Positions 1,853 to 57,428 of a stretch of DNA of 64,000 nt are shown piece by piece. The notes beneath the pieces were generated by a model, which had not been told where the DNA came from, did no database searches, and saw only the letters and a list, made by a program, of their open reading frames with translations. Positions within the stretch are counted from its first letter, which is position 1. Every line of letters begins with the position of its first letter. A program made the position numbers and the translations under genes. The DNA comes from Fimicolochytrium jonesii (Eukaryota). Location of the stretch: contig NW_026515668.1 of NCBI RefSeq assembly GCF_025526975.1, positions 1,860,001 to 1,924,000 of the forward strand, in the 5' to 3' direction.

Positions 1853-2584
1853 ACGGCTTACATATACCCACGCTCCTCTCTCCATAGCCTAATGCGGTTT
1901 GCCTTCGTCGCTTAATCACCTTCATGGAATCTGGCATTTCATCCCCTCATTACATAACACTAGTAGATAGAGATATCACCTAACTACCTTGTGATCTAGT
2001 CGTCTTCTATGTTAGTACGATATAGGTCATCCTTAGTAATGTTTACAGTCATCAAAGCAACTGAAAAGAAAGATATTGGTTTCGGAACACATTGCTGGGA
2101 ACTTCATGGGCACTCTGCGTGTGCATAAAATCAATGATCTAGGGGAGCGGGAGCGTGCCTGGGGAATGTTGGATGCTGGCGTTTGGATGGTCATGGTCGC
2201 CCCAGACTCGACAATACTATGACACTGGTTTGCCCAAGTTCGCAGCGTATCTGCGGCTATAACGCACCAGACATCTTCGCTCCCCCTTGATGTGCCGCGA
2301 AGGACAACCGCGCACATGCTGTCGACGCAAAATAATCGCAGCGACTACATCTTACCTCTAGACTACCTTGTATCTTTGAAGCCCTTCCTCGGTTTGCCCT
2401 GGACGCAGACGGCAGAGAGGAGGCTGTCGAAAACCAAGGAGTGACAGTGACGAGCCAAAGCAGAAAGGAAGAATAAACGCGTCACGTGAACGATTCCAGG
2501 AAACCTGATGTCCACCGTCCAGGTCCTTCTTGCTTCCTCCACCACAACCGTCGCTCACGACGACGACAAAGAGAACAACGAGAG

Positions 2585-8500: not shown

Positions 8501-11500
8501 ACAGTGGCTTCACCCGTGCACCAACTTCGTCGCAAACCCCGGCGTCGTTTCCAACCAGTACTTTCGGTTCGAGCCCGGCCCCTTTGTTCGGTAGTAGTGC
8601 CAGTGTGTCAGCACAGCAATCAATAGCACCTGCAATCGGTACACCACAACCCTTCGCATTTAGCACCGGCGTTCCTTCGGTGACCGCTGTCCCTGACAAG
8701 CCGAAAGCACCTGCAGCATTTTCCCTGGCTAATTTCGGAGCCAGTCAACCGCCTTCCGCGTTCGGCGCCTCGAAGAGTGCTGACCCACCAAAACTTACAC
8801 AGCCACCCATCTTCGGGGGCGTCTCTAGCTCGGAGCCCGCCGTTACCAAAACAGCTACTGCCCCGCCACCCACTTTCGGAGCTGCGTTTGGATCCAACTC
8901 CGCCTCGAGTGGAGGTTTCAGTTTTACACCTGCTGCTTCGCAACCGGCCAAGGCCTCTGCGTCGACGTCAACCGCTGGGTTTGGTTCATCGCCGGCACTG
9001 TTCGGTGCTTCCGCTGCGGCACCGGCATCTCCGTTCGGCGCGGCTCAGTTCGGCGTATTCAAGCCCGCTGACGACACTGCCAGACCGGCCGTCTCGGCGG
9101 CTCCTGTAGCGTTTAGTTCATCGCCAGCAGTGTTCGGCGGTGGGAAGCTCGCGGAGACCGCAAATGGGTCCATCAAGACTTCACCTGCGGCGTTTACATC
9201 TACGTTTGGCACGGCTCAATTCGGCGGAATCAAGCTGGCAGACAATACGGTAAACACTTCCGTCTCGGCGCCTCTTGGGTTTGGTTCGACGCCTGCACTA
9301 TTTGGTGCTGCGACGCCCGCAGCGACGGCGCAAGATCCTTTTATGACTTCACGTGCGGCATCTACGTCGACGTTGGGTACGCCTCAGGTCGGTGGATTCA
9401 GACCTGCAGAGCCAACTTTCGGGGCAGTTCAGGGTTTCGGTGGATTCAACCTCCCAGGGCCAGCACGTCAAACTGCTTTTGGGGTTCAGGCCTCCGGTGC
9501 GTTCACACCCGCAGAACCAGTGGATGAATCTTCCAAGAATCCCGGGTCAGCAGATGAATCGGCGTCGGCGCCTTCATTGTTCGGATCGGCTCAACCTTTC
9601 CGCGGTTTCAAAATACCTCAATCAATAGATCAGTCGGCCAACACCCCGACGTCAGCGCTTTCATTGTTTGGTTCTCCTCAGACTCTCGGCAGTCTCAAGC
9701 CTCCGCAGTCAGCAGATGCGCCGGCCAAGAGCTTGAACCCGGCGCCGCCATTGTTTGGGACTGACCAGACTTCCGGCGGTTTCAAACCTCCACAGACAAC
9801 GGAAGAACCACCCAAAGCTTTGGTTTCAACGCTCGGAACGACTCAGGCTTCCGGCGGTTTCAAGCCTCTGCAGGCAGCTGAAGAAGCAATCAAACCGTTC
9901 ATTCCAGCGTCCGCAGCGGCTCAGATATTCGGGTTCAAGCCACCGCAAGCAGCAGAGGATCCAGCCAAACCGTCCCTTCCAGCGTTTGGCGCCGGCCAAA
10001 CTTCTGAAGCCTTCAAGCCCGCAGAAGCAGGAGAAGAGCGACCCAAAACCTCTATTCCAGCGTTCGGTCCCTTTGGGGGGTCCAAGCCGGCAACGTCGGT
10101 AGAGGAGCTGTCCGAAAGCTCTACTTCGACCTTCGGCTCTTTTGGAGGGTCCAAGCCGGCAGCGTCGGCAGGGGACTTTTCCAAAACCGCTGCTTCAACC
10201 TTCGGCTCGTTTGGAGGATATACGCCTGCAGCGTCAGGAGAAGGGCAGCCCAAACCCTCTCTTCCAGCCTTTGGATCTCAAGGATCTAAACCGGCAGCGG
10301 TTGAGGAGCAGTCCAAAATCCCTGCCCCAGCGTCTGGCACGTCTCAGGTTTTCGGTGGATTCAAGCCCATCCCGGACTTCTCGGCGAGAATTGTTCCAAC
10401 ATCCAGTTTTGGCGGCGTCCAGGTCGGTTCCACCGACTCCGCCGTGCCGAGTTCCCCACCAACAGAGACGAGGGCTGAGATGCATGACGATGAGGGGGAT
10501 TCGGAGACCGCCACATCTGACCCAGTAGCAAGGTCCACCCCCTTCGGCGCTGGTAACTCTGGCCTTGCACAGCCTTCCGGAATGTTTTTCGAGCCCCAGT
10601 CGGAAGAGCAAAGCGTCCCTGAACCAGCAGCGCCCAACTCAGCTCCACCGCCTAGGTTTGGGACCTCCACTGGTGCACCTTCCACATCAGCGCAATCTTT
10701 CGGAGCTGAGAATTCTGCGTCGAAAAATGATGTTTCTGAATCATTAAGGACCGTTATGACGCCTGCAGGCGTTTCGGAAAAGGCTTTAGCAGAGGAAGCT
10801 CCTGGTAGCGATATCTCCGCGCCTGCGAGCTTCACTGCTCCACTGGAGACGATGGCTCCACCTACCGGTTTCCAATTCAAGGTCCCGCATCCTGCGTCGC
10901 GCCCCTCTGGCATCGCATCAGCCGCGCCCATATCCGTTGCATTTGCTGGATTTGGGAACCAAACGGTCACACCAGCAACGTCGCAGACCGCGGCTTCAAA
11001 TGCCCCCGGTGCATTCAGTGGGTTCGGGAGTGGATCAACGGTTGCCCCGGCTTCCACGGGGCAGGTGTCGTATTCGCCAAAGTTTCCAGCGGCAACTCCG
11101 AGCTCCACAGGCTCAGGGGTTGGCTTTGGTGTTTCTAGCCAAACGCAGCCGTCGAGCTCAGCGCCGATTGCTATCTCCAGCTCGTTCAAACCAGCAGAGA
11201 CAATTTCCGGATTTGAAGCAGCCGCGCCCTCCACGTCCAAGAGTGAAGAGTCACTAGAAGACGAGGACGAATACGAAGACCCCCCAATCCCGGTCTCGTC
11301 CGCATCACCCACGAAAGGTAATGCTTTGCTCTTTACGAAGCCATTAGGGTTTGGCACGGGGTTCACGTTCGCTCCAGCGCCCATCCCCTCACCTCCGAAC
11401 CCATGCTCATCCGCCGCCTCATACTTAGCCACGCCGGCGTCGTCTTCTACCCCAAGAACATCAACCACATCGGTTTCGGGCGTAACGACGAGCACTCCGC

Positions 11501-12321
11501 TTGCAGAGGCGGGGACACACCCGGCTTCGATGGGATTCGCGCCGCTGTCGCATGCGTCGACGGTTTCGGCTTTTGCGAGTGCGTCGGACCCGGAGCTGAA
11601 CAGAAACTCTCCCAGGCCCATCAAGGTTACGAAGGGATTCCAGGCGGCTGCGTTGCCGGGGACGGCGAGTCCGCTGGCTTCACGTGATGGGTTTGGAGAT
11701 GCGTCGGAGGCGCCTGTCGAACCTACCCCTTCTGCGACGGCACCTGCGTTTTCATTCGGGTTTGGGTCCGGAATCGGGGCCGGGCCGGCTGATTCCCAGG
11801 CGCATACCGCGCATGCAGCGTCAACCCCTTCATTCGGGTTCGCAGCCCCGCAACCTAAAGCAGCAAGCAGCCCCCCACAGTTCACGTTCGGAATGTCCCC
11901 TGCTGCCGCCACGCCGAAGGCGGGAACAAGCTCAGGCTTCAGTTTCGGATCGACACCCCTCGGGTCAACGCCTACCAGCACCACTTCGCAAGAAGCAGCG
12001 TTCGGTACCACCGTCCCCCCGCCCAAATTCTCTTTCGCGCCAACGAACAACCCGGCTGCGTCGTCCACTCCGTTCACATTCACGCCCTCGACGAGCGCGG
12101 CATCGAGCAGCACGCCGCTCACGTTCAATTTCGCTAAACCGGTCACCGCTACGGAGGAGGATGACAATACCGCGTCGACTTCGGCTTGCCCACCAGCCCC
12201 GGTCCCCGCGTCCCCGCCACGGTATGCAGACCATGCGGATGCGGAGAGCGAGGAGGTGTTTGTGCCTGTGACGAGGGGCAAGAGGGGGAAGAGGAAGAGT
12301 GCTAGCCCGGTTAAGGAATGA
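2585..12321 (+). CDS. NUP160: Nucleoporin Nup160/Nup120 with a very long C-terminal FG-repeat extension
   Basis: Exons 2585-5906, 5979-6157, 6243-6355, 6428-6645, 6710-6909 and 6961-12321 keep frame. Nup160-like motifs LSRDRQLRIWNL, NYYQIFYSY..HGDFRTAASAMY and WLPYLLIDQ, followed by ~1,450 aa of FG/FSFG repeats. Confidence 0.85.
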
Positions 12322-17254: not shown

Positions 17255-19560
17255 TGTCGGCCTTCCCCACCAACAAACCATCGCCACAACCAGCCTCAAC
17301 GAGGACGACACCATCCGCTCAACAAACGACGACGCTTCCATCTCTCCGACCTCGCGTACAATAGGTTATAAGCCCTGCTTGCGAAGCCGAATAGATCTAA
17401 GGTTTAGTTTCGTACAAAGAAATAGTAGTAGTAGTGGAACCATCGCCACGGGTGCCCCATCGGCGGCCCCGTCGGCACCCGATCTCGCAGATCCCTCACT
17501 CGATCCCTCACTCGATCCCGCACAGCAGATCACACTGCAGAAGCGCACACGGCGCGCACGGCACGCAGAGCCGCAGAGGAATACAAGGAGATCAGAAACC
17601 GGGGGAGACATCGGAGGGAGCAGAAGAAAGGATGGGGCGGTACGAAGAAAGGCTTGTCACGCTGGAGAAGGCCACTCTCACGCTGGAGAAGGCTAGGGAA
17701 GATCACAGAAGGTTCATGGAAGATCAAAAAAGGATGCTGGAAGTCATCATGAGGCAAATTGCACGGCTCCAAACCGCAGAGGAGAAGGAAGCGGACGGAA
17801 TTCTGGAGAAGGAAATCGTCGTACCGAGAAAGAAATTATGCCCACGCCCATCGCTCCTTGCAGGCTGTGCGGCATCACCGGGCACTGGACCAGAGCCTGT
17901 CCTGAACTCGAAGCTGCGAAAACATACTTGAGAAGCGGAACACCAACGAAGAAAAAAGAAGCCGAAGCGAACCTCGTCCTCGGTACCCCCCGCAACGAAG
18001 ACCATAGTATCGCGCTCAACCCGCGCACCTTCAAAGCCGATGCCGAACGACACTGCGAAACGAAGATCAAAGAACCTCGCTGCGATAACGGAGGAAACGG
18101 AATCGCCGAAAGGTTGAACCGCACGATAGCAAATCAAAGCTCGCACCACCATACAGCACACCGGGAACGTACCCAACCTCCGCAACGAAATAGCGTTCAC
18201 GGACTACCTGCGTCAGCGCACACCGAGTGCTGCTACGAACGAAGCGCCGTACCGAGAATGGCTGCGCAGCGCACACCGAGTGCCGCTCCGAACGAGACGC
18301 CTTACCAACGAAAATGCATGGAGGAGAAGCCGATATCTCGAATCAACTGTGGTGCGAAGCCTACCTACAAATCCCGTCATGTTACCTTCAACGAAACGAT
18401 CGAAATCTTCGAATCCCGCGATATGACCTTCAACGCAGCGCATTATCGAAGCGCAATTACTACCGACGTAGACGTTGAACATATCGAAAAGAAAATCCTG
18501 CTTTCGCGCGGCGCTCAAGGCGACCTGCTCGGCGATGGGGTTTTGGGGGAGAACGAGGAAGAAAGAGCGCACGTTCGAAGCGCAACTACCGATGACAAGG
18601 ACGGCGAAATCGTACTACCGGCTATCAACGCAGACACGTCCGAGATCCTCAACGCAGCGCAAGTTCGAGGCGCACCTACCTACCGGCTATCCAACGAAGA
18701 AACGATCGAAATCTTCTCATCTCGCGATGCGGCTATCAACGAAGCGCACGCTAGAAGCGCAGAGAAGAACCACGAACGAAGCTCGGCACCTACCGGCTAG
18801 TCAACGAAGCGCTAACAGTAATGTGGTTGAACCACGAGTCGAACACCAGATGCACGTCATGGGGTATGCGAAGACGCTGCATTCGTCCATCAACTATCCT
18901 GCGAGAGTGTCTCTGCGCACCAACTACTGAAGACAACGACGCCGACGAAGATGGCGAAATCGTACTACCGGCTATCCACGAAGAAACGTTCGGGACCGAC
19001 GAAGAAAAAGCGCAGGTTCGAAGCGCACCTACTGACGACAACGAGGGAAGGTAAAGCGCACGTTCGAAGCGCACCTACCGACGACGACGCCGACGACGAT
19101 GGCGAATACAATATCGAAAAGATCCTTCTCTCGCGCTCGAGACGACTCGCACGGCGACGGGGATCGGGGGAAGAAAAAGGAAGAAAAAGACACGAAAAAG
19201 GGTTATCGTCGCCCCCGTACACGACGCAGGAGAGCGTACAACATACGCACGCGAATGGCACGCGAAGCGCGCAAGAAATGAAACACAACATCGGGCACGA
19301 AACGGTCGACTCGAAATACGACATCCCGTACCTTCCGAAGCCCGCGCTTGCCCATCTACGGTCGCTACAAGGGATACATCCCCCCGAAAACGAAACTCCG
19401 TGAGAGAAACGTTGTATATGCACGAAAGAAGAAGAAGAAGCGCAGATCTGAAGAAAAAAGGAGGAGAAGCGCAAATCTGAAGGAAAAAGGTGGCACGAAG
19501 CCGAGCGCCGGAAAAGGGAGCGATGTTGGTCAAGTGAAAAATGTTGACTTCACCCCTACG
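17255..19560 (+). mobile_element. Decayed, internally deleted Ty1/copia LTR retrotransposon
   Basis: Copia-type PBS-like sequence ACA-ATAGGTTATAAGCCC at ~17358-17375. Coiled-coil gag-like ORF; zinc knuckle CRLCGITGHWTRAC; integrase fragments RCDNGG/NGIAERLNRTI and SRHVTFNE; RNase H-end-like LAHLRSLQGI; purine tract GGAAAAGGGAGCGA followed by TG at ~19510-19525. Boundaries are approximate. Confidence 0.8.
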
Positions 19561-19570
19561 CTGTCGGAGG

Positions 19571-19700
19571 TACAGTCAGTTATCAAAAAGCTGTGCACCC
19601 CCCTGAAATAAATCAGCGACTGCCGTAACGCCAAATTCACGTGAGGACCGACATTGATTTCAATTAGAGGGGGTGCACAGCTTTTTGCTAACTGACTGTA
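19571..19700. mobile_element. Tc1/mariner-type MITE (TA target-site duplication, ~31-bp TIRs)
   Basis: Left end TA-CAGTCAGTTATCAAAAAGCTGTGCACCCCC; reverse complement of right end TA-CAGTCAGTTAGCAAAAAGCTGTGCACCCCC (1 mismatch). No coding capacity. Confidence 0.9.
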
Positions 19701-19990
19701 CCATTTCTCACCGCGTTTTACTAGTCAACTACTAGTTCATTTTGAGGAGAAATTCGCCTTCCGATCGCGTCAAACCTATGTCAACCGACTCGAAGTCGAA
19801 GAAGAAGAAGAAGAAGGCGTATGGAAGTTGGAGTAGGGGGAGCGCTGTACTGAGATGAAGAAAAAGGAAGCTTGTGTGCTGCATCGCACAACATCCATCC
19901 TTCCCCGTACTTCCCACGTCCTCACCGCAAGATGGACTTCCATGTCCCACTCCACCCTATATATCTCCTCTTACCCCTCATCCCCACCCA

Positions 19991-27273: not shown

Positions 27274-29550
27274 TTAGTGTGTGCAATCTAACTTGACGCC
27301 GGTATTCAAACGGCCGCTAGTTTCGCTCGCTCGATCGCATACAGCATCGCCTTGAACATCTACAAAGAAACCACAAACCCGCATCAGTACCCAAACCAAT
27401 ACCGGACCTAAACACGTCTCACCAAAAAAAACCCACCGTCTGAGACTGCCCCCCCTCCTCATCAGCAGCCTCCACAACCGCCCTCGCATTCCGCGCCATC
27501 TCATCAAGCGTGGTGATCAACTTCGCGGCCTTGGCGTCGTTGCGGGCCTTTTTGGCGGCCCAGAAGGTGCGGAGGAGTTCGGTCGCTGTTAGATGGTAGG
27601 TTTGGAGGGTTGCGGGTGGGGGCGGGATGTCTAGTTTGGCGATGGTGAAGAGGGGGATGTGAATATGCTGTTTGTGGGATGTCGCAGGGGTATGGAACGG
27701 GATCAATGGGATGTTTCTTACCGTCGCCACGTTGATGATCCCGTTTTCGCTTCCGTGTCATCTCGTTGAGTTGTTTGAGGACTTTGTCCGCGTTCGAGCG
27801 GTACACCGATGTCTGTGGATTGCTGCATGATCAGAAGGGAATGCCACTTGGTCACACGCCCACCAGAGGATTCTCGCACCTTCGCTAATTGTGGCTGCCA
27901 CCCTAGAATGGTCTGCCGCAAACTCTGCTTGAAAGAAGCAGAATAGACGGCCGTGACATCCTCCTGGCCCGCGGCACTCCCAGCCTGTGCATGGTAGTAT
28001 TTGCTAACGTCGCCAATCATCAGTGCTTTCGCGGCCTGTTTCTGCTCTACTCGTAGGTCGTCCAATTCGGTCGACTCCTTGTACACCTCATCGGCCGGTT
28101 TCGCCGGCTTGGGTAGCGACGCCTGCCCCGCCAAGGTCGATTTTAAAACACCCTCCGAGACGCGGTTGAACTGTCGAATGAGCGGTAGAGAAGCTCTCAC
28201 TCCGCCGGCTCGCATCGTGCTGTCTGGTCGGTTGCCGGTCTCGGTATGGTCCTCGCTTTGCGCGCCGAGATCCAGAAGGTAGTTCGAACTCTCGTAGCTT
28301 GCCGCTTTGGGGTGTTCGGCGTAATCATCGTCATCCTTGGTCTCGTATTTCGCAAAGAACTCGTCGCTGGCTTTGATGGACGCCCCGGCCCGTTTTTGGT
28401 AGTACTTGGACTCGAGGAAGCGGCGGAGGAAGTCTTCGGTGGTTATCTTGTTGGTTGTTACGGTATCATCGTAGGCGCGCTTCACTATCGGATACTGCGA
28501 GAGTATCGACGTGATCATCTCATTGGTGACCTTGTACGTTGTTTCGGTTCCATCGGACCCATTCCCACTCGGGCGGAGTTCAATAATGACTCCTGTCGGC
28601 CCTTTTCGTTGACTCCGCTGCCATTTCTCTTGCGCCAGTAATTCCTGCACGAAAAGCTGTCAGCTTGGGTGAACGAACGCTTGAAGCGGCGCGGCAGCGA
28701 CGGTCGACTAAACGAGTGGTCGAACGAGAACCCATGTCCAACGCTTTGCTCGCGAAAAATCCAACGCTCGCCGGTGCTTGCTAAAAGCCGTAGTGAGGCG
28801 AACATGCGGATTTGGCGCAGTGCGAACTCCCTTCGCTCGCGAAGGCAATCGTCCTGGGACTACGACCTATAGCTCGCCCTCCTCAAGCAACCCCGCGCCT
28901 CAGGCTCGCCGCAGTCCGGATCCGCCCCATCACCGTAGCAACATGCTCCATAACACTCGGAGCTCCGTTGTGCGAATCAACCCTCGCCTATGGCTTGCAA
29001 ACACATACCTGCCTCGCCGCCCAAAAATCGTCCTCGGAGATCAACCTCGACAAAACAAGCGAAGCATGAAGTTGCTTCAGATCCTCGTCCTTCCTCAAGA
29101 TATCATGCCGGATCTGCAAATCCTCATTCGTCGTCGTAGGCTGCGCGACCGCTTTGATCGTCCTGTTATTCGCCTGAATAACATCTCCAAGGAGTGTGAT
29201 GACTCTCGCTCTGTTTTCGACCGCGTCGGGTGCGAGGAAAGTGAGGTTGTGGTTGACCTCGGGCTGTTCGGTGTCGTCGGGGGAAGACTGGGTGACTTTG
29301 AGGATGGGTTTTGCGGGGTTTTTGTTTTGTGCGATTGCTAAACTCACAGAGGTGGAACTCGATTAGCACCTGGGCACGATGACTCTTGGGAGGGAAAGAC
29401 TGGGAACGAACATTTGACGGTCGGATAAGGAACTCGCAGTGCGGGAGTGTCAGCGCCTGTCTCTGTCCAGCTGAACTCCCGCTGGCCAAAGGTGAGGGTG
29501 CCTATGCTTTTGAGGTAGGAGGCGCTGCATTGTAAGCGTGGGCCTGCCAT
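27274..29550 (-). CDS. TFB1: TFIIH subunit p62/Tfb1 (PH plus BSD domains)
   Basis: N-terminal PH-like segment, BSD motifs (LKQLHASLV..ISEDDFWAAR; ILSQYPIVKRAY..FLESKYY), ETGNRPDSTMRAG, ELLRTFW. Confidence 0.9.
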
Positions 29551-29723: not shown

Positions 29724-31061
29724 ATGGCTCCCACAACCCCCGCAACAACAGTCTGGGACACGAAAACCCAGCAGTTCCACGGCGGACAAGAATGGCAGTT
29801 CATAGACAACTTCGTAGAGGACTTTTCAGTCACCACAAACGGACTCGGGCTACCCAAAAAGGCTCTCCAGGCCGCGAGAGACTCCCTCGATATCTCCCAC
29901 CACTATCCAGCCGCTGACCAGGAACCTGCAAAGACGAACTTGGCCAAATTCTATGCGCCAGACGGATTCGAGAGTGTTCACGAGCGGCTTTTGTTGGGGA
30001 ACGGCGCGAGCGAGCTTATTGACTTGGTCACTAGGGCGGCACCTGAGGGGCCTTGGAAGCCGGGTCCTTGGACTGTTCAGGTATGTGGAGGCGAGTCAGC
30101 GATAGCGAACGGTCATTTTCATCACTCGCGCGTCGTCGTCAAGAATGGTTAATGGTTGACGTTCGATGGCTGATGATTGATGTTTTTTCATATCCTTTCT
30201 CATAGTACAAAGAGTACGAACGCTCAGCGATCGCGCTTGGCCGTAAAGTGCTTGCGCCCAAGGATGCGACGCCCGCCTCGCTTACATGTATCGTCAACCC
30301 CAACAACCCGACCGGCGACTACATGAACATCGAGGCGCTCAAGAAGTACATTGAGGAGACGGTTGCTGATAACACTGATGTCATGGTTGGTGAGTAAACA
30401 TAAGATCAAGGGAATGGGGCGTCTTGGGAGATCCCCATCTCACTCACTCTCCATCCAACCCCCCACAGACGAATCAATGCAACCATGGCACTCCCCCTCC
30501 TTCCGCTCCGACTCCCTCATCTCGCAACCCACCTGGATCGCCAACCTCTTCCAAACCCGCGGCATCGCCGTCTATCTCATCCACTCCTGGACAAAACTCT
30601 GGTCCTGCACGGGTCTCCGCCTCGGCTCCCTCGTCTGCCCGACCGTCGCCCACTGCACCGCCCTCAAGAAGGTCCAGGTCCCGTGGTCCGTCAACGTCCC
30701 TGCCCTCGCTTTCTTGCAGGTTGTGACTTCAAGCGACGAGCAACCGTTTTTGGATGAGACATGGGCGGTTACCACCCCCTGGCGCACGTACACCGTTGAC
30801 GCTCTCACAACCCTCGGCCAACACGTTAACAGCGGGAAAGGGTGGACGATCACCGGCGAACCCTTCCTCTCGTGGGTGTGGATCGACATGCACGACGCGG
30901 AGGTAGCGGCGCAGGCTGTAGAGTTGGCGAAACGCGCCGGTGTGCCGGTGCGGAGCGGCGTGCCGGGGTATGCGTGCCATACGTGTGTTAGGGCGGCGGT
31001 GAGGAAGCCGGAGTTGGTGGATAAGCTTGTGAGGGCTTGGCAGCCGCTTGTTAAGGCGTAG
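29724..31061 (+). CDS. PLP-dependent class I/II aminotransferase (HisC/CobD-like)
   Basis: FHGG..DFSVTTN, LGNGASELID, VNPNNPTG, DES, SWTKLWSCTGLRLG (PLP lysine); two introns. Confidence 0.85.
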
Positions 31062-34533: not shown

Positions 34534-37014
34534 ATGGCCATCTTCTTTTGGAGAAAGCAGCAGGTGAGGAAGAACGGGACTGTTGCAGGGGCGGGATGGT
34601 GGAGCGTTGTGCTCCGGGTCAGACGTAGAACTGGGCGGGCCCGCCAGCCGGCCCCCGTCTTTTACGAAATGGACGGCCCAAGATGCTGGCGGGTCAAGTC
34701 GAGGCGAGACGTAGTGCGAACGAGGGGGACAACCTCCTCCTCCTTCCTGCAAAGTGGTGGTTAGGGAGGCGGACGTACATTAGTGCCTTCGGCGCCACCT
34801 TGATGGAGAGCCTCTCAAACGAATCCCCACCATCATCACCCCACTCACACAGCTCTCAACCCACCCCCAACAGCTAGACGACGAACAGATCCTCGCCAGC
34901 CTAGACCGCCAAATCCGCCGCACAGAGGTCCGCGTCTCCTCTATCCGTCAACGGCATCAACGGATCAAGCATGCGTGGCTTTATTACTCTGTCTCAATCT
35001 ATGTGTTTGTGCTCGTGCTGTATTTTACGTATTTGAAGCCACGACGGGATCCGTGGGATATTTGGCTGGTCAAGACGGGGGTTGTGGTCGTGGGGGCGCC
35101 GGGGTATGTATTGCGCACCGTAATACCGAGCGTTAAGCGAGGACGAACGCAGCGAAGCGAGCAGAACTGTGAGCGACAGCGAACGATCGTGTATATGACA
35201 CATCGCTCTTTCATCGTTCATGTCTTGCCTCAACAACCTTATCGCGAGCGGAGCGAGCACGGTGTTGTTTTCATCCCATCATGCACTCTCACCGAGCGAT
35301 CACTCATCCATCTTTTTCCTCTCATTCGACCGACAGCATCTACTTTGGGAACCGTTTTATCCGGTACTGGTACCAACGGAAAGAAAAGGCTGAACGTTAG
35401 TGGATCTCGTGCAGAGAATGGTTTTACGATCACGCGAATCTCACCTCTCCATTTTGATTCCATAGGGGATTTATTGGAAAGTCTGAAAGCGAAACAAAAG
35501 GAGAAGGTCGACGCACTGAAAGAGAATGAGGCGTATCGGAAGACACAGCTGTTGTTGCAGCGATATGACACACCGACGAAGGATCGGCCGGCTGGGGTGA
35601 GTTACTCTGGACTTTGCATTGTGACGAAACGATGAGTTTTGTTGGCTCACCGCCTTCATCTGAAGGATGAACTTGTGGACGCAAAGGGACATAGCCGCCC
35701 GACGACTCCTTTACCGTTCCCGCCGTCTCATATCAAAATGGGGCAGCCGTCCAAACAAATGGGACCACCTAGTCTTGCGCCGCCGGGTACACCAGGTGAG
35801 GGAGTTCGTGATCAGCATCTGGTCGATCACGCTGAAAATGTCGTTAATCGCGGACAATAACCCCAGGAATGGCGCCTGTACCAGGAAAACAAATAGACAA
35901 CCCAACGCAAACCACACGCTCCCCATCCCCGTCCCCAGCCTTCCTCTCCATCCCACCCTTCGACCCCACCCAACTACCAAACCGATGTAAGCCGTCCCAG
36001 CCCATCCCAACCTAATCCGCACCCGCATCCATCCCTAAACCATTCCAATATCAGCAGACTCACCCTTACCCCCACCACCAACACCCACGCCCCAACACCC
36101 GTACGCCAAAACATGGTTCGACAAAGTAATCGACGTGATGATCGGCGAGACGAACGACACAAACAGCCCGGCGAGCAAGTATGCGTTGATTTGCGAGGAG
36201 TGTTTTACGCATAACGGGTTGGTGCCGGCTGAGGCTTATTCTGATGCGCGTACGTATGAGATATCATTTTTTTCGTTCGTCCCGTTTCCTTTTCTTCCGC
36301 CTGGGGGTGTGGTCCGTTTCCTTTCCTTCCGCCTGGGCGTGTGTTGGGGTGATGTAAGACCAACGATGACGTTTGTTGAGTTGAATTTATGTTTTCACCG
36401 TAGGCTTCCGCTGCATGCGCTGCGACCACCTCACCATCCCCAAACGCTACGCCAGCATGATCTCCCCATCAAACCTCTCCCCGTCCCAGTCCATCCCCAG
36501 CGACCTCAACACCGCCAGTCCGCGGCATACACCCCCTCCACCCGGGGGGGACGGCGGCCACGTTGCGTTTGCGGACAGTGCGAACGGGAGTGGAGGGATG
36601 ATGTATATGAATCCGAAACTGTCGCAGAGCCAGCCCGCGTTCTTTGCGCCCAGGCATAGTGTGAATCCGTTGGAGGGCCCGCCGCCTGCTGCTGGTGCTG
36701 CGCGGTCTGCACCCGGACACCGAACGGAGAATACGGGCGTTGGCGAGGAGGAGGAGGAGGACATCGCCCCGCCTGCGTCTGGACCGGAACAACAACTACA
36801 CCACGAACAGGAAGCGGCTGCTACGCCGACACCCCCGTCTTCCCAGCCCCAACCGCAACAACAGACGGAAGAAGACGGAGGGACGGGAATGAGACGTCGG
36901 CCGAACGAGAAAAGGGGCGGCCGCGGGAGGAAGGCGGGCAAGGCGGGGAGGAGGCAGGAGGGAACGGGGACGGGGACGGGGACGGATAGTGAGCGGGAGG
37001 GTGCTGTGGAGTGA
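34534..37014 (+). CDS. LNP1: Lunapark ER-junction protein
   Basis: N-terminal EQILASLD, two transmembrane segments, LKAKQKEKVDALKE..YRKTQLLLQRYD, zinc ribbon WFDKVIDVMIG..YALICEECFTHNGL..FRCMRC. Confidence 0.9.
35104..35336 (+). repeat. Lunapark intron 2 carrying four GA-bracketed hairpin units
   Basis: CCGAGCGTTAAGCGAGG, AGCGAAGCGAG, GTGAGCGACAGCGAAC, GCGAGCGGAGCGAGC. Confidence 0.75.
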
Positions 37015-45024: not shown

Positions 45025-47358
45025 CTACTCATCCCCACCGACCTCACCCTCCCCGTCCACAACATCCACCACCTCCACCACCGCCTTCTTCTCCCCTTGA
45101 GGAGGATGCACATACCCGGGCTGCATATACTCGGGCTTCTTCTCCTTCAACACCTTCGCATCCGCCGTCAAAAACCACGCGTAGTCACAGCTGCGGCCAT
45201 CGACTATACGGATCCAGTCGTCAAACCTACAAAATCACATACCATCACATCAGATCATAGCGTATCATCGTATATCAGCAGAGATAGATAGAGGGAATAT
45301 AACTCACGCGTTAGTCTCAACCTCCTCCTCCACCAACCGCGAATAGATCCATTTCTCCTTAAACGCGTCAATCTCGCCTTCGTAAGCGTCGAACGAGACG
45401 CCGGCGCGGTCGTTGGCTTCTGAGGCCCATTTTTCGTTGTACATCCTGTAGACGGTCTGAATCAAATCGTAAGGGTTTAAATGAATGTTGGGCAGTGATG
45501 GGGGAATTGGGGAGGATGGGAAAGGGTTTTGAACGCATACCCGCTCGAGCAACAACCCCAACGCGGGCGCTTTGGGGATATTAAGTTTTTCTTTGAGGAA
45601 GGCTTCGTTGATGAGGGTGGCCGGGGTGGAGGTGCGGATCATCAGGATCGCCAGGCCTGAAAAGAAGTTGCGTTCGGTGAGATCGTCAATGGTGTCTCGT
45701 AGCGAATTCAGCAATGGGGAAGAGATACGTTACCAATCATCTTGCGGATCTGGTGCAGCATGAACGATTGCCCAAAGATCTTGCATTTGACCCATTCCAA
45801 ATCGCCGCGGATGATGGGGTCGCTGACCTGTATGTCAAAGAAACGAAGTGACCTGAGCGACCATGTCCCGAAAACGATACGCGTCCACCCCAAAAAAATG
45901 CATAAAGGGATAGCCTACCGTCAAATCGATCATGAATCGCATCGCACTACTATCTCCAAACCCCTTCCCCACCGTAAAATTATGGAAATTATGCGTCCCC
46001 TCATACCCCTTCAACGCCTCCCTCAGTTTCCCCAGTCGTTCCTCCCCAATCCTAAACGCCCTCCTTGCCGCCAACTGATCCGCCGTCGGCTTCGCCGTAA
46101 GATCATCGAAGGATTCATTGGCGTGGGTGGGCAGCTCGGTGGTGGATATCCCATGGGATTTAGCGAGGGCGGAGAAGGGGTAGAGGTAGGGAGCGGCCGG
46201 GGCGAGGACAAAGGTGGGGAGAAAGTATTCGTAGATACGGGAGTCGCAGGCGTTTTTGGCGTGGAAGGCGTTGGTGGTGCGGACGTAGCCTGGGGTGTGA
46301 GGCAGGGAGGGTGGTTTAAGTTTTAGGGTAGGGGATTGGGGTGCATTGTCAGAGGGATGTTATAACGCACCCCAGACACGTATTTGCTCTGGGAGATGTT
46401 GGTTGATTTTTGAGATGATGGTGGGGTCTTCGATGATCATTTTTAGGGAGCAGACTTGGCCGGCTGCGTGCACGCCTTTGTCTGTTCGGGCTGCGCGCAT
46501 GAATTGGATCTGATAGGAAACATAATTGAGTTCCTGTAAGACGAGTGCGATGCCTTATATACCCCGTATGCATACCTTTGCCGGGTCGTTCGCATTGTCT
46601 TTGCTGACGGCGCCTGATTCTGCTAGTGCTTTATGCAGCTCTGCTTCGATCGTTGCGACTCCGGGGTTGCTGTAAGAATCAGGGAAGGGAGATATCAATG
46701 ATCGTTTTCACTATCCTCCATCATGTAAGGGATCCCGAGCGCCAGCCGAGTGGTCAATGAGCGAAGCAGCTCCCTTCGCTCGCTAACGCTCGGTCTCACC
46801 ACGCTGCGGGATCCCGGATCGAACCAACCACTCCCTCGCCTACGGCTCGCTCAATACTCACATTTGCATTCCATTGTAACCAGTCCCACAATACCCCATC
46901 AAGAGCGCCACCTTCTTCTTTGGCAATCTCGGCCCCGAATCCTCCGCATCCCCTCCCTCTCCTCCTCCCTCACCCTCAGCACCCTCCTTTGTCTCCCTGG
47001 GTCCCCAAGCTCTCCCCCGCTTAGCACTCTGCGCCTTCCCACTTGGAGCGGTCCTGCGTTTGTTCTTACTCCTTCCACTTTTCTTGTCGTTGGAGGTGGC
47101 TATGACAGAGACGTCGGGTGAGTCGTCGCCATCGGGCGTGTCGAGGCCTATTGAGCCTGTGTTCTCTGTTGTTAGTGGTGCTGTGGGTGCTGAGACACCG
47201 ACACCTTCGCCTGCGGTTGCTGGGAGGGAGGAGGGGGTTGAGAGGTCTAGTTTTATACGTTTGTCGGCGGGTGCTCCTTGCGAGTCCGCGGCGACCTCTT
47301 CTGCGGAGCGTTCCCGTTTGGAGCCTGCAGCGAGAGTGGAGTCTGTTTGGTCCGTCAT
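45025..47358 (-). CDS. PUS1: tRNA pseudouridine synthase 1 (TruA family)
   Basis: KKKVALLMGYCGTGYNGMQ, ARTDKGVHA, CDSRIYEY, GTHNFHNFT, GQSFMLHQIRKMIG, IPKAPALGLLLE. Confidence 0.95.
46670..46861 (-). repeat. PUS1 intron 1 carrying GA-bracketed hairpin units
   Basis: Sense strand ATTGAGCGAGCCGTAGGCGAG directly after the donor, and CCGAGCGTTAGCGAG. Confidence 0.7.
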
Positions 47359-48182: not shown

Positions 48183-50650
48183 ATGGAAGAAGTGTCCCCG
48201 CTGCTGACCCCCTCGATCGACGCCGAAACGCACCCGTTCAAGTTCTCGGCGCTCAAGCTCGAGAATCCCATCCTGCCCGTGTCCATCCCGTTTGTCGCGG
48301 AAAAGTCGCCGAGCCCGCCGACGAGCGATACGACTGTGTCTGATTACGGGGATGGGAATGGGCATGGGAATGGGAATGGGAAGACGGGCGGGACGGCGCC
48401 GGCGGCGGACGAACCGGGAACGGCGCGAGAGCAGGGAGAGGAGGTGAAGAAGAAGAAGTGGGGGGATGCGACGAAGGTGAAGCCGGGGGAGTTTGAGCCG
48501 GAGAGGCATTTCTATCCAAGGGTTTTGAAGTGAGTAGGGACAGCGACAGGCGGGTCTGGCGAGCGCAGCGGGGCCTGGTGCTCCATGTCCAGCGAAGGAA
48601 AAATTGAGCGAGCGAAGCGAGCCTCCTGCGTTCTGCGAGGGGCAGCGAATCCATCTTCTTCATCCGCAGCATCGCTGTTGCGAGCGTCGCCATCATCTCG
48701 TTAAACACATATCTCATACGATCCTACTCCTTCCCTCAAACTCCCCTCCAGCGCCAACATCCACCCTCTCGTCGCCTCCTTCTTCTCCCTCGGCAACGAA
48801 CGCATCATCGCCCGCTACACCCACCTGAACCCGCAGGTCGACATGGAAGCGCTCACAAAACTCCTCGCGTACAAACCCACCTACTTCCAGTGGGCCGGTA
48901 ATGTCGTTCCGATCCCGTACTTTTTTGCATCATGGAGAAAACATTTGGGGGAAGAATGTAATTGAACGAGAAAAACCCACCCGGGGATTCTAGGATCGGA
49001 CTTGTTCAATGTGACGACCGCCAGCGGCCAACGCCAGATGATCATCGTCGAGACCAATTCGTGCCCGTCGGGTCAGAAATCGATGCCGTTGTTGTCGGAC
49101 CCTGAGGAACATGGCGGTTACGGTATGCGCGTCTCCCCCTCTACCCTTTTCCCCCATTCCCATGGCCCCCAATCTCTCACGCCCCCATTCGCCCACCAAC
49201 AGGTATAGTGATCTCCCGCACCTTCCTCCCCCTCCTGCGCACGCTCCCCCCCACCCTCGGCGGCCTCGCCGTCGTCTACGACAAGAACATGATGGAGGCC
49301 TCAGGCTACGCTGCCGTCATGGCCGAGGTGTGTGGCGAGGAGGTTTACCTGGTCGAGTATTACCTGGAGGACCCGGACCCGCCGGTCCAGTGGCGGGACG
49401 GGGTGATGTGGGTTCGGGATCGGGTGAAAGGTAAACTGTCCCAAAAACCAAAACCCTCCGTTTCTTTTCCCTATGGTTTTGGGGGGGTGGGGTGGAACTG
49501 ACGACAGTATTTTCATTCCATTTTTTTTCTTCAAGAATGGCATCCGATCCGCGCCTGTTTCCGCTACGTCACGCAAAAGCCCTGGTCGCGGTTCCCGCTG
49601 TCCACACGCACGCTCGTGCTCAACAGCGTGATCTCGTGTCTCGCGGGCGGCCGCAACAAGATGATGGCCGCGCGCGCGTACGATTTCCTCAACGCCGAGC
49701 TGGCCGGGACCGGGCTGGGCGTGCGGGTGCCCGAGACCATCCGCAACGTCACGAAGGGGGAGATCCCGCTCTGGCTGGATAGTATGGGCGGGCATGCGGT
49801 GGTCAAGGTGCCTTACTCTAACGCTGGTAGCGTATCCGTATCCCTGCCTTTGTCCCATGCCCCACGGTCCTAAACATGTTATGATAACACTCCCCCCGTA
49901 AAGGCCAGGGCGTCTACACAATCACGACCGCGACCGAACTCTCCACGTTCATGTCGACCCCGCACCACTACGGCAAATTCATCGTGCAATCCCTCGTCGG
50001 CAACGCGTCGTGGTCGTCCATCTCGCGCACGGGCCGCTTCTACCACGTCGGGACCATCCCCAACAAGAAGAACCACACCTTCGTCACCGACCTGCGCTGC
50101 ATGGTGTGTGCCGACGCCGGCGGGTTTGCCCCCGTCGCGATATACGCGCGGAGGGCCAGACGCCCGCTGCTGAGGAGGCTGGAGGATGACCCCAGTGGTG
50201 CGTTTATCCATGTGTGCTTGGTCCTACCCCGTTGGGTCAACTAACCCCTCGGTTTTACTTACGGCCCCTGTAGTAACATCGTGGGAGATGCTGGGCACGA
50301 ACCTCTCGGTGCGGCTCCCGAGCGGGGACTGGACGACCGAAGCGCAGCGGCTGCTGCTGATGGACCGCAAAGACTTCAACCAACTGGGGCTCGGGATCGA
50401 CGACCTGATCGACGCGTACATCCAGACGGTGTTGAGTGTGATCGCGATCGATAAGATGGCGGGGCGGTTGATGCGCGTGAGGAAGGGGTTGGGTGAGCGG
50501 AACGAGCGAGAGGGGGGCGAGGTGCAGGGGGACGTGGGGGGTGGGGAGGGGGACGGGCAGAAGGCGTGGGAGAGCGAGTATGAGTTTGATTTGGAGTTGT
50601 TTGAGGCGTTGAATCCGGATAAGGCGCTTTTGAAGGAGATTTTGGGGTGA
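48183..50650 (+). CDS. Uncharacterised ATP-grasp-like (glutathione-synthetase-like fold) protein
   Basis: Multi-exon ORF with [40 protein letters not shown] and DLRCMV, a pattern resembling circularly permuted ATP-grasp ligases. Alternative start at 48117. Confidence 0.65.
48530..48751 (+). repeat. ATP-grasp gene intron 1 carrying GA-bracketed hairpin units
   Basis: GCGAGCGCAGCGGG at 48559 and ATTGAGCGAGCGAAGCGAGC at 48603-48622. Confidence 0.7.
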
Positions 50651-51176: not shown

Positions 51177-52904
51177 TCAATCACCACCATGATCCTTCTC
51201 CTTACGAGTCTCCACCACCGGCTCGCCGTCCTCCAGCACCGTGCGGTTCACAACGCTCTTCACAGGCGCACCGGTGGTGGTCTCAGACCCCTCCGCACCC
51301 TCAATCTTCCCCTCGACCACCTCCGTCTTATCGCCCTTCCTCTTCTCCACCCTGATCTCGGCCCCGTCAACCCCGCTCTCCGCATCCTTGACCTCCTCCG
51401 CAACCTCCTCAATAAAATCCTCCACCGTCTCCAAGAGCCCCTCGGCTTCAGCCTCATTCAGCGCATCCGCAGGCGTATAAGTCTCCCCCCTAATCCTATG
51501 CGTCAAAAACCGCTGGGTCACCGTAACATCCAGCACAAAGTCCGAATAAAACCCAAAACAGCAGTGCTTGAACGCCGGCCAGCGGTATGTGGGCCCCAGG
51601 TCCGGAGAGAGGTTTTCGGTGTAGGAGAAGGCTTTTGTGTGCAGGAGGGCTGCGATGGCCATTTCGATGCAGAGGATGAAGGCGTTGAGGGAGTTGGAGA
51701 TTTCGAGGGAGGACCAGTGAGGGGTGGAGTGGATGATGTGGGTGTTGGAAAGGATGGAGATTGTGACGCTTTGCCAGAAGGAGAAGAAGATTACGAACTG
51801 GGTGGGAGGGATCAAGGGAGGTAATGAGTGGGTGGACCTAAAGGGGTGGCAGAAAGAACCGTTCGTCGGGTCAGGTACTCACCTTGATGGAGACGAATTT
51901 CAGGACAGGGTGATATCCCTTCAACTCGCTCTTTATCGTAGTATAAATTTGCACCAACGCGAACATTGCCACCGTAACGCTAATCGAGTTGACAATGATA
52001 ATCCACAGATGCGCAAACCGCGGACTCATCGAATCCTCACAAAACTTCCCCGTCAACTGTGTCACCACCGCCAGCACAGTCGTCACGGGTCTCAGCACCA
52101 CATACTGCAGCGTGCCAATCTTGCAATAATGCAAGAAATGCGGGCGCGAGGGGCGGTACGTCCACCGTTGCAGCGGGAATACGAAATTCATAGTGGGTTT
52201 CGAAGCGAGCACTTCGGCTTGCGCTTGGATGTCGGCGCCGATGTAGGCGAGGAGGAGCTGGAAGAACTCGTAGATGACGACGGCTTCGTAGCAGTCGCGG
52301 AGGACGTCGAGGTAGACCGTCATGCCGCGGAAGGCCAGGCCTAGGCAGGAACACACGCTGTAGACTGGGACCATGAACAATATCCGAACGATGTGTTTCT
52401 AGAATGTATGAGGGAAGGAATGAGTGTGTGTGAACCATCGACCATGGACCATCGATCGTCAACCATCGAACGTCAACCATTTAACCACTCATCAACAGGT
52501 ACGATTATTATGAGGAGAGTCTTGCGCCTTTGGCGCAATATGATCCTCGCTTCGCTCGCACAAGATCTGACGCTCGCTGATGCTCGCACTCACGGCGTTC
52601 GTCCTCGCTAGCGCTCGGTATTACAGTGGACTCGTTCACGTACCTGATAAACGGGCGAATGATAATACCCCCAATGCTGCCAAACCAACAAAAAGCTCAA
52701 GCACACGGAAAAAACCGTAAACGCGCCACTCAGCGCCCACCCAACCAAAAACAAATGATACCCGTCACTGTCAGGCGGCGGTGGACCGTGGTGTTGCGGG
52801 GGCATTGGGCAGTCCCAGTCTGATATGATCGGCTGCGGTGAGTCGTGGGTGGGTGGTGAGCCGGCGAGGAGGGTTTGGAGGAGAAGGGGTGGGAGGGGCG
52901 ACAT
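51177..52904 (-). CDS. TMEM184: TMEM184/organic solute transporter Ost-alpha family protein
   Basis: QKHIVRILFMVPVYS, RDCYEAVVIYEF, GTLQYVVLRP, KFVSIK..FSFWQ, CIEMAIAALLH. Confidence 0.92.
52399..52643 (-). repeat. TMEM184 intron 1 carrying three GA-bracketed hairpin units plus a 3' block shared with another intron
   Basis: Sense strand CCGAGCGCTAGCGAGG, GCGAGCATCAGCGAGC, CGAGCGAAGCGAGG; 3' block TGGTTAAATGGTTGACGTTCGATGGTTGA. Confidence 0.75.
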
Positions 52905-56339: not shown

Positions 56340-57428
56340 CTAGTACTGCGACGTCTGACGATCGTAGTTGGCACCCATGGCCTTTTGGAGCAGTTTCTTG
56401 ATTTCGGTTTCGCGGAGGTCCTGTTTCGTGGAATAAGATAGGGGATTCAGAAACGCGATGAGTGAGCGATGTGGTCTTCTTTCAATGGGGTGTCGCATCA
56501 GGGACTCATCCCTCGCAGATGAATTCCGATCATTCAACACCTCGAAGCGACGTGCCAAGCCAAGCGTCCCCGCGCTGATTCCTGCCCCACCCAAAAAAGC
56601 ACCCACGCCCCGCATCCCCTCCCCCCCCCCCCCCCCCCCCCCCCCTGCCAACCACCCAACTCAAACACCGGAAAACAACACATACCTCCTTTGTAGAAGC
56701 AGCAATCTCGACCGCAAACGTCTTGACGATCTGCTTGACGGACGCAATGTGCACCGACAGCTTGGCCTTGCGCATCACCTTCACTTCCTTGCCGCACCAG
56801 CTTACGAGCACGAATTTCGCGCGTTGCGACTAGAAAACAAAAAAAGTGAAATACGAAGGACCGGGAGTGTGTTAGTGCTGTGGCGTAGGGATGAGCGAGG
56901 CATGGAATGGGCAGCGAACGCAGATGGACCCGCCCCCGGACGACTATCGATTGTCCCGTCTGCGTTCGATTGAATCTTTCATCGCAGGATGCCTCATGGA
57001 AGCATGCACCCCCACACACACCCCGCCCCCCCCCCGCTCGCATTCCCCATCCTACATCCCCCCACATCGAAAACACGTACTCAGGGGGTAGGTTTGTCAT
57101 ACTCACCAACTCATCGTTCCCAACAATGATCCTCAGATACCCAAACGCGGCCTGGTCGTCGCGCAGCTTGTCCGTGAACTCGGCCAGCCCGCCCGTCCCG
57201 CTGCCGCTGAGGGTGAGGACGTCTTTTGCGTCGTTGGCGTACGATAGTAACAGCCTGTGCGGGTGAGTCGGGTGGGTGGGTGGGTATGCGATGTCCATGG
57301 GCTGGCGATGCCCGCCCTCGCGAAAGAACAGTGGAAAGGAAAGTCATGCCCCCTTACCAGTTAGTCGGGGTCTTGTCGTTCCTCACGTCATCGTACGCAG
57401 CCTGCACATCGCCGTCGAAAGTCGCCAT
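56340..57428 (-). CDS. COTL1: Coactosin-like ADF-H actin-binding protein
   Basis: Four exons give AYDDVRNDKTPTNWLLL..SGTGGL..FGYLR..SQRAKFVLVSWCG..KAMGANYD. Confidence 0.9.

Follow-up and report, generated by a model that had tools for sequence, protein, structure and literature searches.

Predicted mini-hairpin arrays shared by long introns of the chytrid Fimicolochytrium jonesii: a probable decayed repeat family with perfect units on the sense strand only

Introduction

Natural mini-hairpins of DNA act as single-stranded DNA signals, examples of which are the phage G4 origin, the ssiA of RSF1010 and the N4 promoter (PMC13037366). As DNA, cores with GNA, GACA, GATA or GTTA loops melt at 69.5-76.5 C, a range that includes the values measured for GCGAAGC, GCGGAGC, GCGACAGC (72 C), GCGTTAGC and GCGATAGC, and for the RNA version of GCGAAAGC the melting point is 39 C; these published values refer to cores of 7-8 nt, not to G·A-extended stems, and do not include a core with the 5-nt loop GTTAA (PMC13037366). 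The word "intron" does not occur in this review (PMC13037366).

Two kinds of dispersed hairpin repeats have been described that are relevant here. The REP and REPIN sequences that go with RAYT transposases are short, non-coding and hairpin-forming, and are thought to move as single-stranded DNA (PMC3116915). Double-hairpin elements (DHEs), which were first found in chytrids and are also present in fission yeast, are small, GC-rich and potentially mobile mitochondrial elements made of adjacent hairpins that vary in their loops (bioRxiv 10.1101/2022.12.06.519325). Introners, or introner-like elements (ILEs), are sequences common to the long introns of unrelated genes and lie in sense orientation (PMC3609843; PMC9860276). 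ILEs reportedly decay fast, and for three ascomycetes the same paper notes repeats that lie as inserts in regular introns (PMC3609843).

Short repeats in fungal introns are thus known and are usually unremarkable. The repeat described here is unusual in having mini-hairpins of the DNA type with G·A-extended stems, in sharing its wording with prokaryotic repeats and single-stranded DNA signals, and in its strict placement on the sense strand of introns. Our literature search, carried out mostly at the title and abstract level and covering few subscription papers, found no publication on such intronic arrays.

The shared block

The window analysed is a stretch of 64,000 nucleotides of GC-rich, intron-rich DNA from Fimicolochytrium jonesii, a spizellomycetalean soil chytrid. 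An initial annotation had reported a near-identical 30-nt module in the introns of a lunapark and a TMEM184 gene, and a string check located both copies in the window, at 35120-35150 (+) and 52624-52595 (-). The offsets of 16 and 19 nt after the GT donors and the intron lengths of 233 and 245 nt were also given correctly. The module itself is real but the homology is longer, since 35116-35179 aligns with 52628-52567 with 52 of 65 columns identical. The reported 31-mer and 30-mer are therefore contained in a shared block of ~64 nt in the lunapark intron (35116..35179, +) and of ~62 nt in the TMEM184 intron (52567..52628, -).

When the 86 predicted introns were compared pairwise in both orientations (7,310 comparisons), these two introns were the top pair, with a score of 60 against a null mean of 17.8 and a null maximum of 27 in 300 shuffles, and the ten best pairs were all in the same orientation. 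The near-identity is beyond chance: a gapped pattern of the module had two matches in the window and none in 100 shuffles, and blastn-short returned an E of 0.013 within the window. The full block has two copies in the 64 kb. A fuzzy search of the window with up to six edits found the two blocks only, and at seven edits a partial third appeared at 46799 (-).

The similarity does not extend to the introns as wholes. The 45 nt that follow the 30-mer are not significant on their own in global alignment (604 of 2,000 shuffles reach the score), nor is the remainder of both focal introns (153 of 500 shuffles), and over the first 15 and last 40 nt they resemble each other no more than background, with scores as high in 67% and 32% of 3,081 random pairs. 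Because their ends are no more alike than those of random intron pairs, the focal introns are unrelated when taken whole. That the two blocks descend from a common sequence, as the initial annotation proposed, is likely from their alignment: they belong to the top intron pair, they have in common 9 of 10 bases of a prefix that is not part of a hairpin, and they carry three units in the same order. The similar offsets and intron lengths that had been cited in its favour add little. In the lunapark intron only, the first bases of the module also form the 3' arm of an 8-pair hairpin (35108-35126, +) located 4 nt after the donor GT; the TMEM184 copy is without this donor-proximal hairpin.

Host introns and genes

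The lunapark intron (35104..35336, +; 233 nt, phase 1) is spliceosomal, and its removal reproduces the annotated protein P0028, which carries PF10058. The TMEM184/OST-alpha intron (52399..52643, -; 245 nt, phase 0) is likewise spliceosomal; its flanking exons are collinear with residues 8-54 and 55-226 of the Powellomyces orthologue P0002 and the protein has PF03619. One lunapark exon matches P0028 and one TMEM184 exon matches the public protein P0001, both F. jonesii proteins and both at 100%. P0001 starts in the second exon, after the 245-nt intron, and so does not span it. The first TMEM184 coding exon (52904-52644, -) is conserved in P0002-P0004 and absent from P0001, for which an annotation error or intron retention is a possible explanation. 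P0028 in turn reads through a predicted intron at 36250-36403 (+), a probable mis-annotation, and lacks the second half of the lunapark zinc ribbon; in the orthologue P0029 the ribbon picks up again at 36406. None of 15 distant TMEM184 loci has an intron at the 52643 position, most being intronless there or lacking that region.

Four further long introns have parts of the repeat. These include a 125-nt intron of an aminotransferase gene (30081..30205, +) with a one-mismatch unit at 30096-30109 and a second module at 30143-30182; a 192-nt intron (46670..46861, -) with units at 46849-46835 and 46792-46779, in a gene that we take to encode a Pus1/TruA-like pseudouridine synthase; a 222-nt intron (48530..48751, +) in which one unit is perfect (48608-48622) and another has one mismatch (48560-48572); and a 364-nt intron of a BSD-domain gene, presumably TFIIH Tfb1 (28645..29008, -), with degenerate modules common to the 46861 and 52643 introns. 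Proteins confirm the lunapark and TMEM184 introns only; the other four are predicted from frame continuity, two of them with the addition of Pfam hits in the next exon.

Structure of the units

The block consists of units, NN-GA-GC(G..A)GC-GA-NN in general form, that abut one another; their cores are the GCGNAGC/GCGNNAGC mini-hairpins of DNA, and their stems are predicted to continue through tandem G·A pairs. Tandem GA steps in such stems form sheared pairs. In the lunapark intron, unit 1 (35126..35142, +) is a predicted tandem-G·A mini-hairpin, CC-GA-GC(GTTAA)GC-GA-GG, with a 5-nt loop, and is followed by a degenerate unit 2 (35143..35158, +) that overlaps a perfect GCGAAGC mini-hairpin at 35152-35158. 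A pattern scan located two more units in this intron, GT-GA-GC(GACA)GC-GA-AC at 35169..35184 (+), which has GCGACAGC as its core, and GC-GA-GC(GGA)GC-GA-GC at 35244..35258 (+). In the TMEM184 intron three units abut without any spacer at 52572..52618 (-), CC-GA-GC(GCTA)GC-GA-GG, AC-GA-AC(GCC)GT-GA-GT and GC-GA-GC(ATCA)GC-GA-GC, and a fourth, C-GA-GC(GAA)GC-GA-G, is found at 52546..52558 (-).

Six units have two outer pairs and a G..A loop, where 30 shuffles gave 0.4; without a restriction on the loop there are 42 units against 31.2 in 30 shuffles, a small excess. Perfect cores number seven, against 0.1 in 20 shuffles of the window and 0.04 in 300 per-intron shuffles, nulls that are a little lenient as the script can shorten sequences slightly on shuffling. 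In these seven cores, which were found blind to their flanks, the first flanking pair is complementary in 7/7, the second in 5/7 and the third in 1/7, and the pair types differ, a pattern that a stem continuing across the G·A pairs would be expected to give. The loops are GGA, GAA, GAA, GACA, GCTA, GTTA and GTTAA. A GC stem closing a G-N-A or G-N-N-A loop, which defines the mini-hairpin, is thus present in six of the seven, the exception being lunapark unit 1 with its 5-nt loop, and none of the three four-base loops is of the RNA GNRA type.

The differences between the two copies had been said to fall only in the loop of a hairpin with a conserved stem. This is correct for a non-canonical stem CC-GA-GC / GC-GA-GG with tandem G·A pairs, but standard folding gives no such hairpin and there is no ordinary Watson-Crick stem to conserve. 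As RNA, the whole focal introns fold no better than shuffles (z 0.24 and -0.19), and the sense-strand blocks folded as DNA gave z values of -0.63 and +0.92; ViennaRNA does not return G·A mini-hairpin folds. A Watson-Crick hairpin or a structured RNA is not supported for the focal introns by these scores. Among the four introns with perfect cores, the 46861 intron alone folds better as RNA than its shuffles (z -3.2). There the mini-hairpins lie inside a longer Watson-Crick palindrome (46812-46730, -), and a donor-like GTGAGA with a score of 6.9 precedes the 46792 unit in the same register as the internal GTAATA. GTAATA was considered as an alternative or nested donor and rejected, with scores of -1.5 and -0.9 that are below those of all 86 predicted donors.

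Distribution, strand and intron length

Distribution was assessed with a small self-trained gene model that predicts 86 introns (median 83 nt, 9,515 nt in total), 35,490 nt of exon and 18,995 nt of intergenic DNA. Its ten seed introns included the six long ones treated here, it puts lunapark intron 1 in the wrong place, and two of its long calls, at 17.3-18.0 kb, are doubtful, so that the counts that follow, all of which rest on 64 kb, are approximate. The seven perfect cores are all on the sense strand and in four long introns, with none antisense, exonic or intergenic; as they fall in four introns they amount to four independent observations. A pattern admitting three types of core gave 7 matches in intron sense, 1 intergenic and none in intron antisense or exons, and with one mismatch 17 in intron sense, 2 in intron antisense, 21 exonic and 11 intergenic. 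GCGAGC is found in introns 20 times in sense and once in antisense, with ~2.9 expected for each.

The perfect cores are also tied to intron length. They are present in 4 of the 15 predicted introns of at least 150 nt and in none of the 71 shorter ones (Fisher p 0.0006), the introns that carry them measuring 192-245 nt against the median of 83 nt; the other 11 of the 15 long introns are without a perfect core. Neighbouring long predicted introns at 56421-56685 and 56830-57106 (-) have no hairpin units and show long G runs in the 5' half, which is a different route to long introns. Short introns have a median of 78 nt and, in 45 of 59, a branch-like site at a median of 23 nt from the acceptor, so that an insert can be tolerated only if it begins some tens of bases from the donor. 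The similar offsets of the two blocks are accounted for in this way without targeting; for the most part they show which positions of a 78-nt intron can accommodate an insert.

What is unexplained in the finding is the sense-only orientation. Purine skew of introns is not supported as its cause, the purine content of short introns being 0.42/0.41 in their two halves. Antisense copies may have been purged, but this is not evident. The sense copies contain nine and eight AG dinucleotides, where antisense copies would have one and two, which makes simple purging not the obvious answer; antisense copies would also carry branch-like and pyrimidine-rich tracts.

Origin of the repeat

The presence of two copies, the grammar of the units, the confinement of perfect units to long introns and their sense-strand polarity are what an explanation has to cover. 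It is most likely that we are dealing with a real, decayed repeat family, beyond chance, that has one unexplained property. More specifically, we consider it somewhat probable that the 30-mer is the best-kept part of the ~64-nt repeat and that the blocks are relics of a small non-autonomous mobile element inserted into already existing introns. The units would fold in single-stranded DNA and not in RNA, and the element would have been copied by an enzyme encoded elsewhere that acts on single-stranded DNA, perhaps a HUH/Y1 transposase or a tyrosine recombinase. Enzymes of the IS200/IS605 type insert into single-stranded targets. Inserts would survive only between donor and branch point, which would give the observed offsets and bring introns of ~80 nt to 190-360 nt. 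Their fixed orientation could come from exposure of the non-template strand in transcription or from loss of antisense inserts, and later decay and recombination of copies may have produced mosaics. Handling as single-stranded DNA is suggested by the DNA-type loops and by the prokaryotic parallels described below.

Several facts speak against such an element. A search near the block edges for the flanking direct repeats named in the initial annotation found no target-site duplication of more than 5 nt, and neither element ends nor a transposase were found; a Pfam scan of 42 of the 91 long frames of the window revealed no RAYT or HUH transposase. Random insertion should moreover reach the 19 kb of predicted intergenic DNA and both orientations, and neither is seen. 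In addition, the 45 nt beyond the 30-mer do not reach significance by themselves, the same hairpin wording is found in other domains of life, and the 11 long introns mentioned above lack the perfect core. A more ambitious form of the proposal, a nuclear REP-like family of single-stranded DNA elements that insert into the exposed non-template strand, always in sense, and are the main cause of intron lengthening here, is in our opinion doubtful. If true, it would be a eukaryotic counterpart of the bacterial mini-hairpin repeats. Agreement from a genome-wide count would be a sign of single-strand mobility coupled to transcription in the nucleus of a eukaryote, and of a route to intron lengthening; a count in disagreement would reduce the case to an ordinary decayed repeat.

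The same polarity, the near absence from intergenic DNA (one match of the three-type pattern), the position soon after the donor and the pairing of the first flank in all seven cores would also be expected of a functional pre-mRNA element, in which purine-rich GAGCGA units near the 5' splice site, with or without a tandem G·A RNA structure, aid the splicing or regulation of long introns and are kept by selection. We regard this as unlikely. The loops are of the kind stable as DNA and not GNRA (PMC13037366), both focal introns fold no better than shuffles, no Rfam family matches (in the window nothing reaches the gathering score, and at E up to 5 there is only mir-320, with 13.6 bits), most of the long introns do without a perfect core and the host genes are functionally unrelated.

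The six long introns have modules in common in mosaic fashion, different pairs sharing different modules. A second module, of GATGGTT-type repeats unrelated to the hairpins (52450..52490, -), is shared over 41 nt between the TMEM184 intron (52490-52450, -) and the 30081-30205 intron (30143-30182, +), with a score of 55 against a null maximum of 28; it is locally tandem-expanded in the TMEM184 intron and has no matches in viral contigs. A 40-nt stretch of the TMEM184 intron (52587-52548) resembles 28781-28742 in the 29008 intron (score 35, null maximum 27), and the 46861 and 29008 introns agree in 16/18 positions close to their donors and are identical over 14 nt deeper in the intron. Modules at similar donor distances, as in this last pair, could mean that the long introns descend from a self-copying intron of which patches of similarity are left. 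Such an introner-like family would fit introns that are longer than ordinary ones, a repeat that is genic only and always in sense, and the rapid degeneration reported for ILEs (PMC3609843). This origin is nevertheless quite unlikely: the outermost 15 nt at the 5' end and 40 nt at the 3' end are no more similar than background, three of the four perfect-core introns have no low folding energy, module sharing changes from pair to pair, and the internal GTAATA, weaker than every predicted donor, is not the start of a nested intron.

The hairpin wording is not restricted to the chytrid. A 22-24-mer version is present at 28 places in prokaryotic genomes, 12 of them in Acidimicrobiaceae, where most belong to one palindrome-flanked family, and the others in further actinomycetes, Halofilum and one haloarchaeon; several of the 28 look like chance matches in coding DNA. 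The loop is of 3 nt in 24 of the 28, three lengths having been allowed. Similar units occur in apparently repeated, palindrome-flanked bacterial elements, such as L022/L040, L035 and L042. One apparently repeated palindromic element (L015-L042), with the mini-hairpin at its apex, is found in Acidimicrobiaceae and other actinomycetes, and in L042 it is flanked by inverted arms of 15 nt. Over 23 nt, locus L040 is identical to the copy in the TMEM184 intron. The first two units of that copy recur, in unchanged order, in L018, where they may lie inside a reading frame. Convergence thus explains part of the block identity, and with wording common across domains the case for descent of the intron copies is made by their prefix, the order of their units and their overall length.

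The longer sequence gave no such parallels. Neither the exact 28-30-mer nor the full module is found in JGI metagenome contigs, and the hairpin followed by ACGAAC is not found in viral contigs. With blastn, the 91-nt TMEM184 array had a best E of 0.7 in plasmids (among the matches listed, 20 of 41) and of 0.07 in phages (among the matches listed, 20 of 22), in both cases with short matches mostly in coding DNA. In viral contigs the prefix precedes a core at 14 loci, of which 7 are distinct, three share one sequence and one, L008, lies in a group I intron, against 7 and 4 loci for two scrambled prefixes; it is not universal wording and is not strongly tied to the core in viruses. The generic two-unit pattern is present at two viral loci that are one sequence.

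Carried to its end, convergence would need no mobile element: transcription would expose the non-template strand and the mini-hairpins would template their own perfection and duplication in place. This explains the sense polarity and the confinement to transcribed DNA, and is in agreement with the identical wording in unrelated prokaryotes and viruses and with the failure to find ends or target duplications. As a full account we hold it to be quite improbable, as it leaves unexplained the shared non-hairpin prefix, the same order of three units and the 41-nt module of the 52643 and 30081 introns, which is unrelated to the hairpins. Finally, chance similarity of low-complexity intron sequence, which could appeal to an in-window blastn E of only 0.013 for the 31-column match, is largely refuted by the shuffles (0/100 for the pattern, 60 against 27 for the intron score and 7 against 0.1 for the cores) and is very improbable.

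Comparison with known systems

Cut-and-paste elements of the MITE type, which have terminal inverted repeats and target-site duplications, were considered and rejected: from the left edge no direct repeat of more than 5 nt was found, and neither block is among the 25 longest of the 626 inverted pairs of at least 18 nt in the window; decay of such ends may have taken place. A 130-nt element at 19569-19702, which looks to us like a Tc1/mariner-type MITE, has 34-nt arms that are 97% complementary, begins with CAGTC and has TA on both sides. Adjoining it, a zinc-knuckle frame followed by dispersed direct repeats of 25-55 nt (17697-19550) may be a decayed mobile element. Repeats of another kind are present in the Nup160 gene (2477-12321), which runs into a long coding tandem repeat (6955-12321, +) with periods of 69-87 nt and ~170 nt.

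A viral contig (L008:421-606) contains, next to a tRNA, a group I intron (RF00028, 63 bits) whose Q-like segment agrees with the opening 11-12 nt of the module. A group I fragment was rejected for the blocks: of the P, Q, R, S core there is only this 11-12-nt Q-like match, and RF00028 has no hit at E up to 5.

The resemblance to introners and ILEs lies in sequence common to long introns of unrelated genes and in sense orientation (PMC3609843; PMC9860276). The chytrid introns agree in length, but the similarity reaches neither intron end, the modules are mosaic and there is no stable RNA fold, only one of the four perfect-core introns having a z below -2. Unrelated intron ends, unremarkable RNA folding and the lack of a target duplication are the grounds for rejecting an assignment to introners. 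As far as the category is described in PMC3609843, the blocks fit instead among repeats inserted within regular introns.

With DHEs the blocks have in common small, adjacent hairpins of variable loop, and the chytrids themselves (bioRxiv 10.1101/2022.12.06.519325). The comparison is one of descriptions; DHEs are mitochondrial and mostly intergenic, with no mention of G·A stems in the available account (bioRxiv 10.1101/2022.12.06.519325), while the chytrid block is nuclear and intronic and its stems need G·A pairs, and it was not classed as a DHE. With REP and REPIN sequences it shares dispersed, short, non-coding hairpins (PMC3116915), and the same 22-24-mer is part of palindrome-flanked repeats of Actinomycetota and Halofilum. 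Unlike them, the chytrid units are eukaryotic, intronic, direct and abutting, their orientation is tied to transcription and no RAYT was seen in the 42 of 91 long frames scanned; the inverted doublet of a REPIN was rejected, all units being on one strand with no antisense cores. The cores of the intron units are the very sequences of the d(GCGNAGC)/d(GCGNNAGC) mini-hairpins (PMC13037366), from which the chytrid arrays differ by the G·A extension of the stems, by the abutting of the units and by their location in nuclear spliceosomal introns. In summary, the repeat works most like the REP-type or double-hairpin repeats, and is built from known mini-hairpins of DNA.
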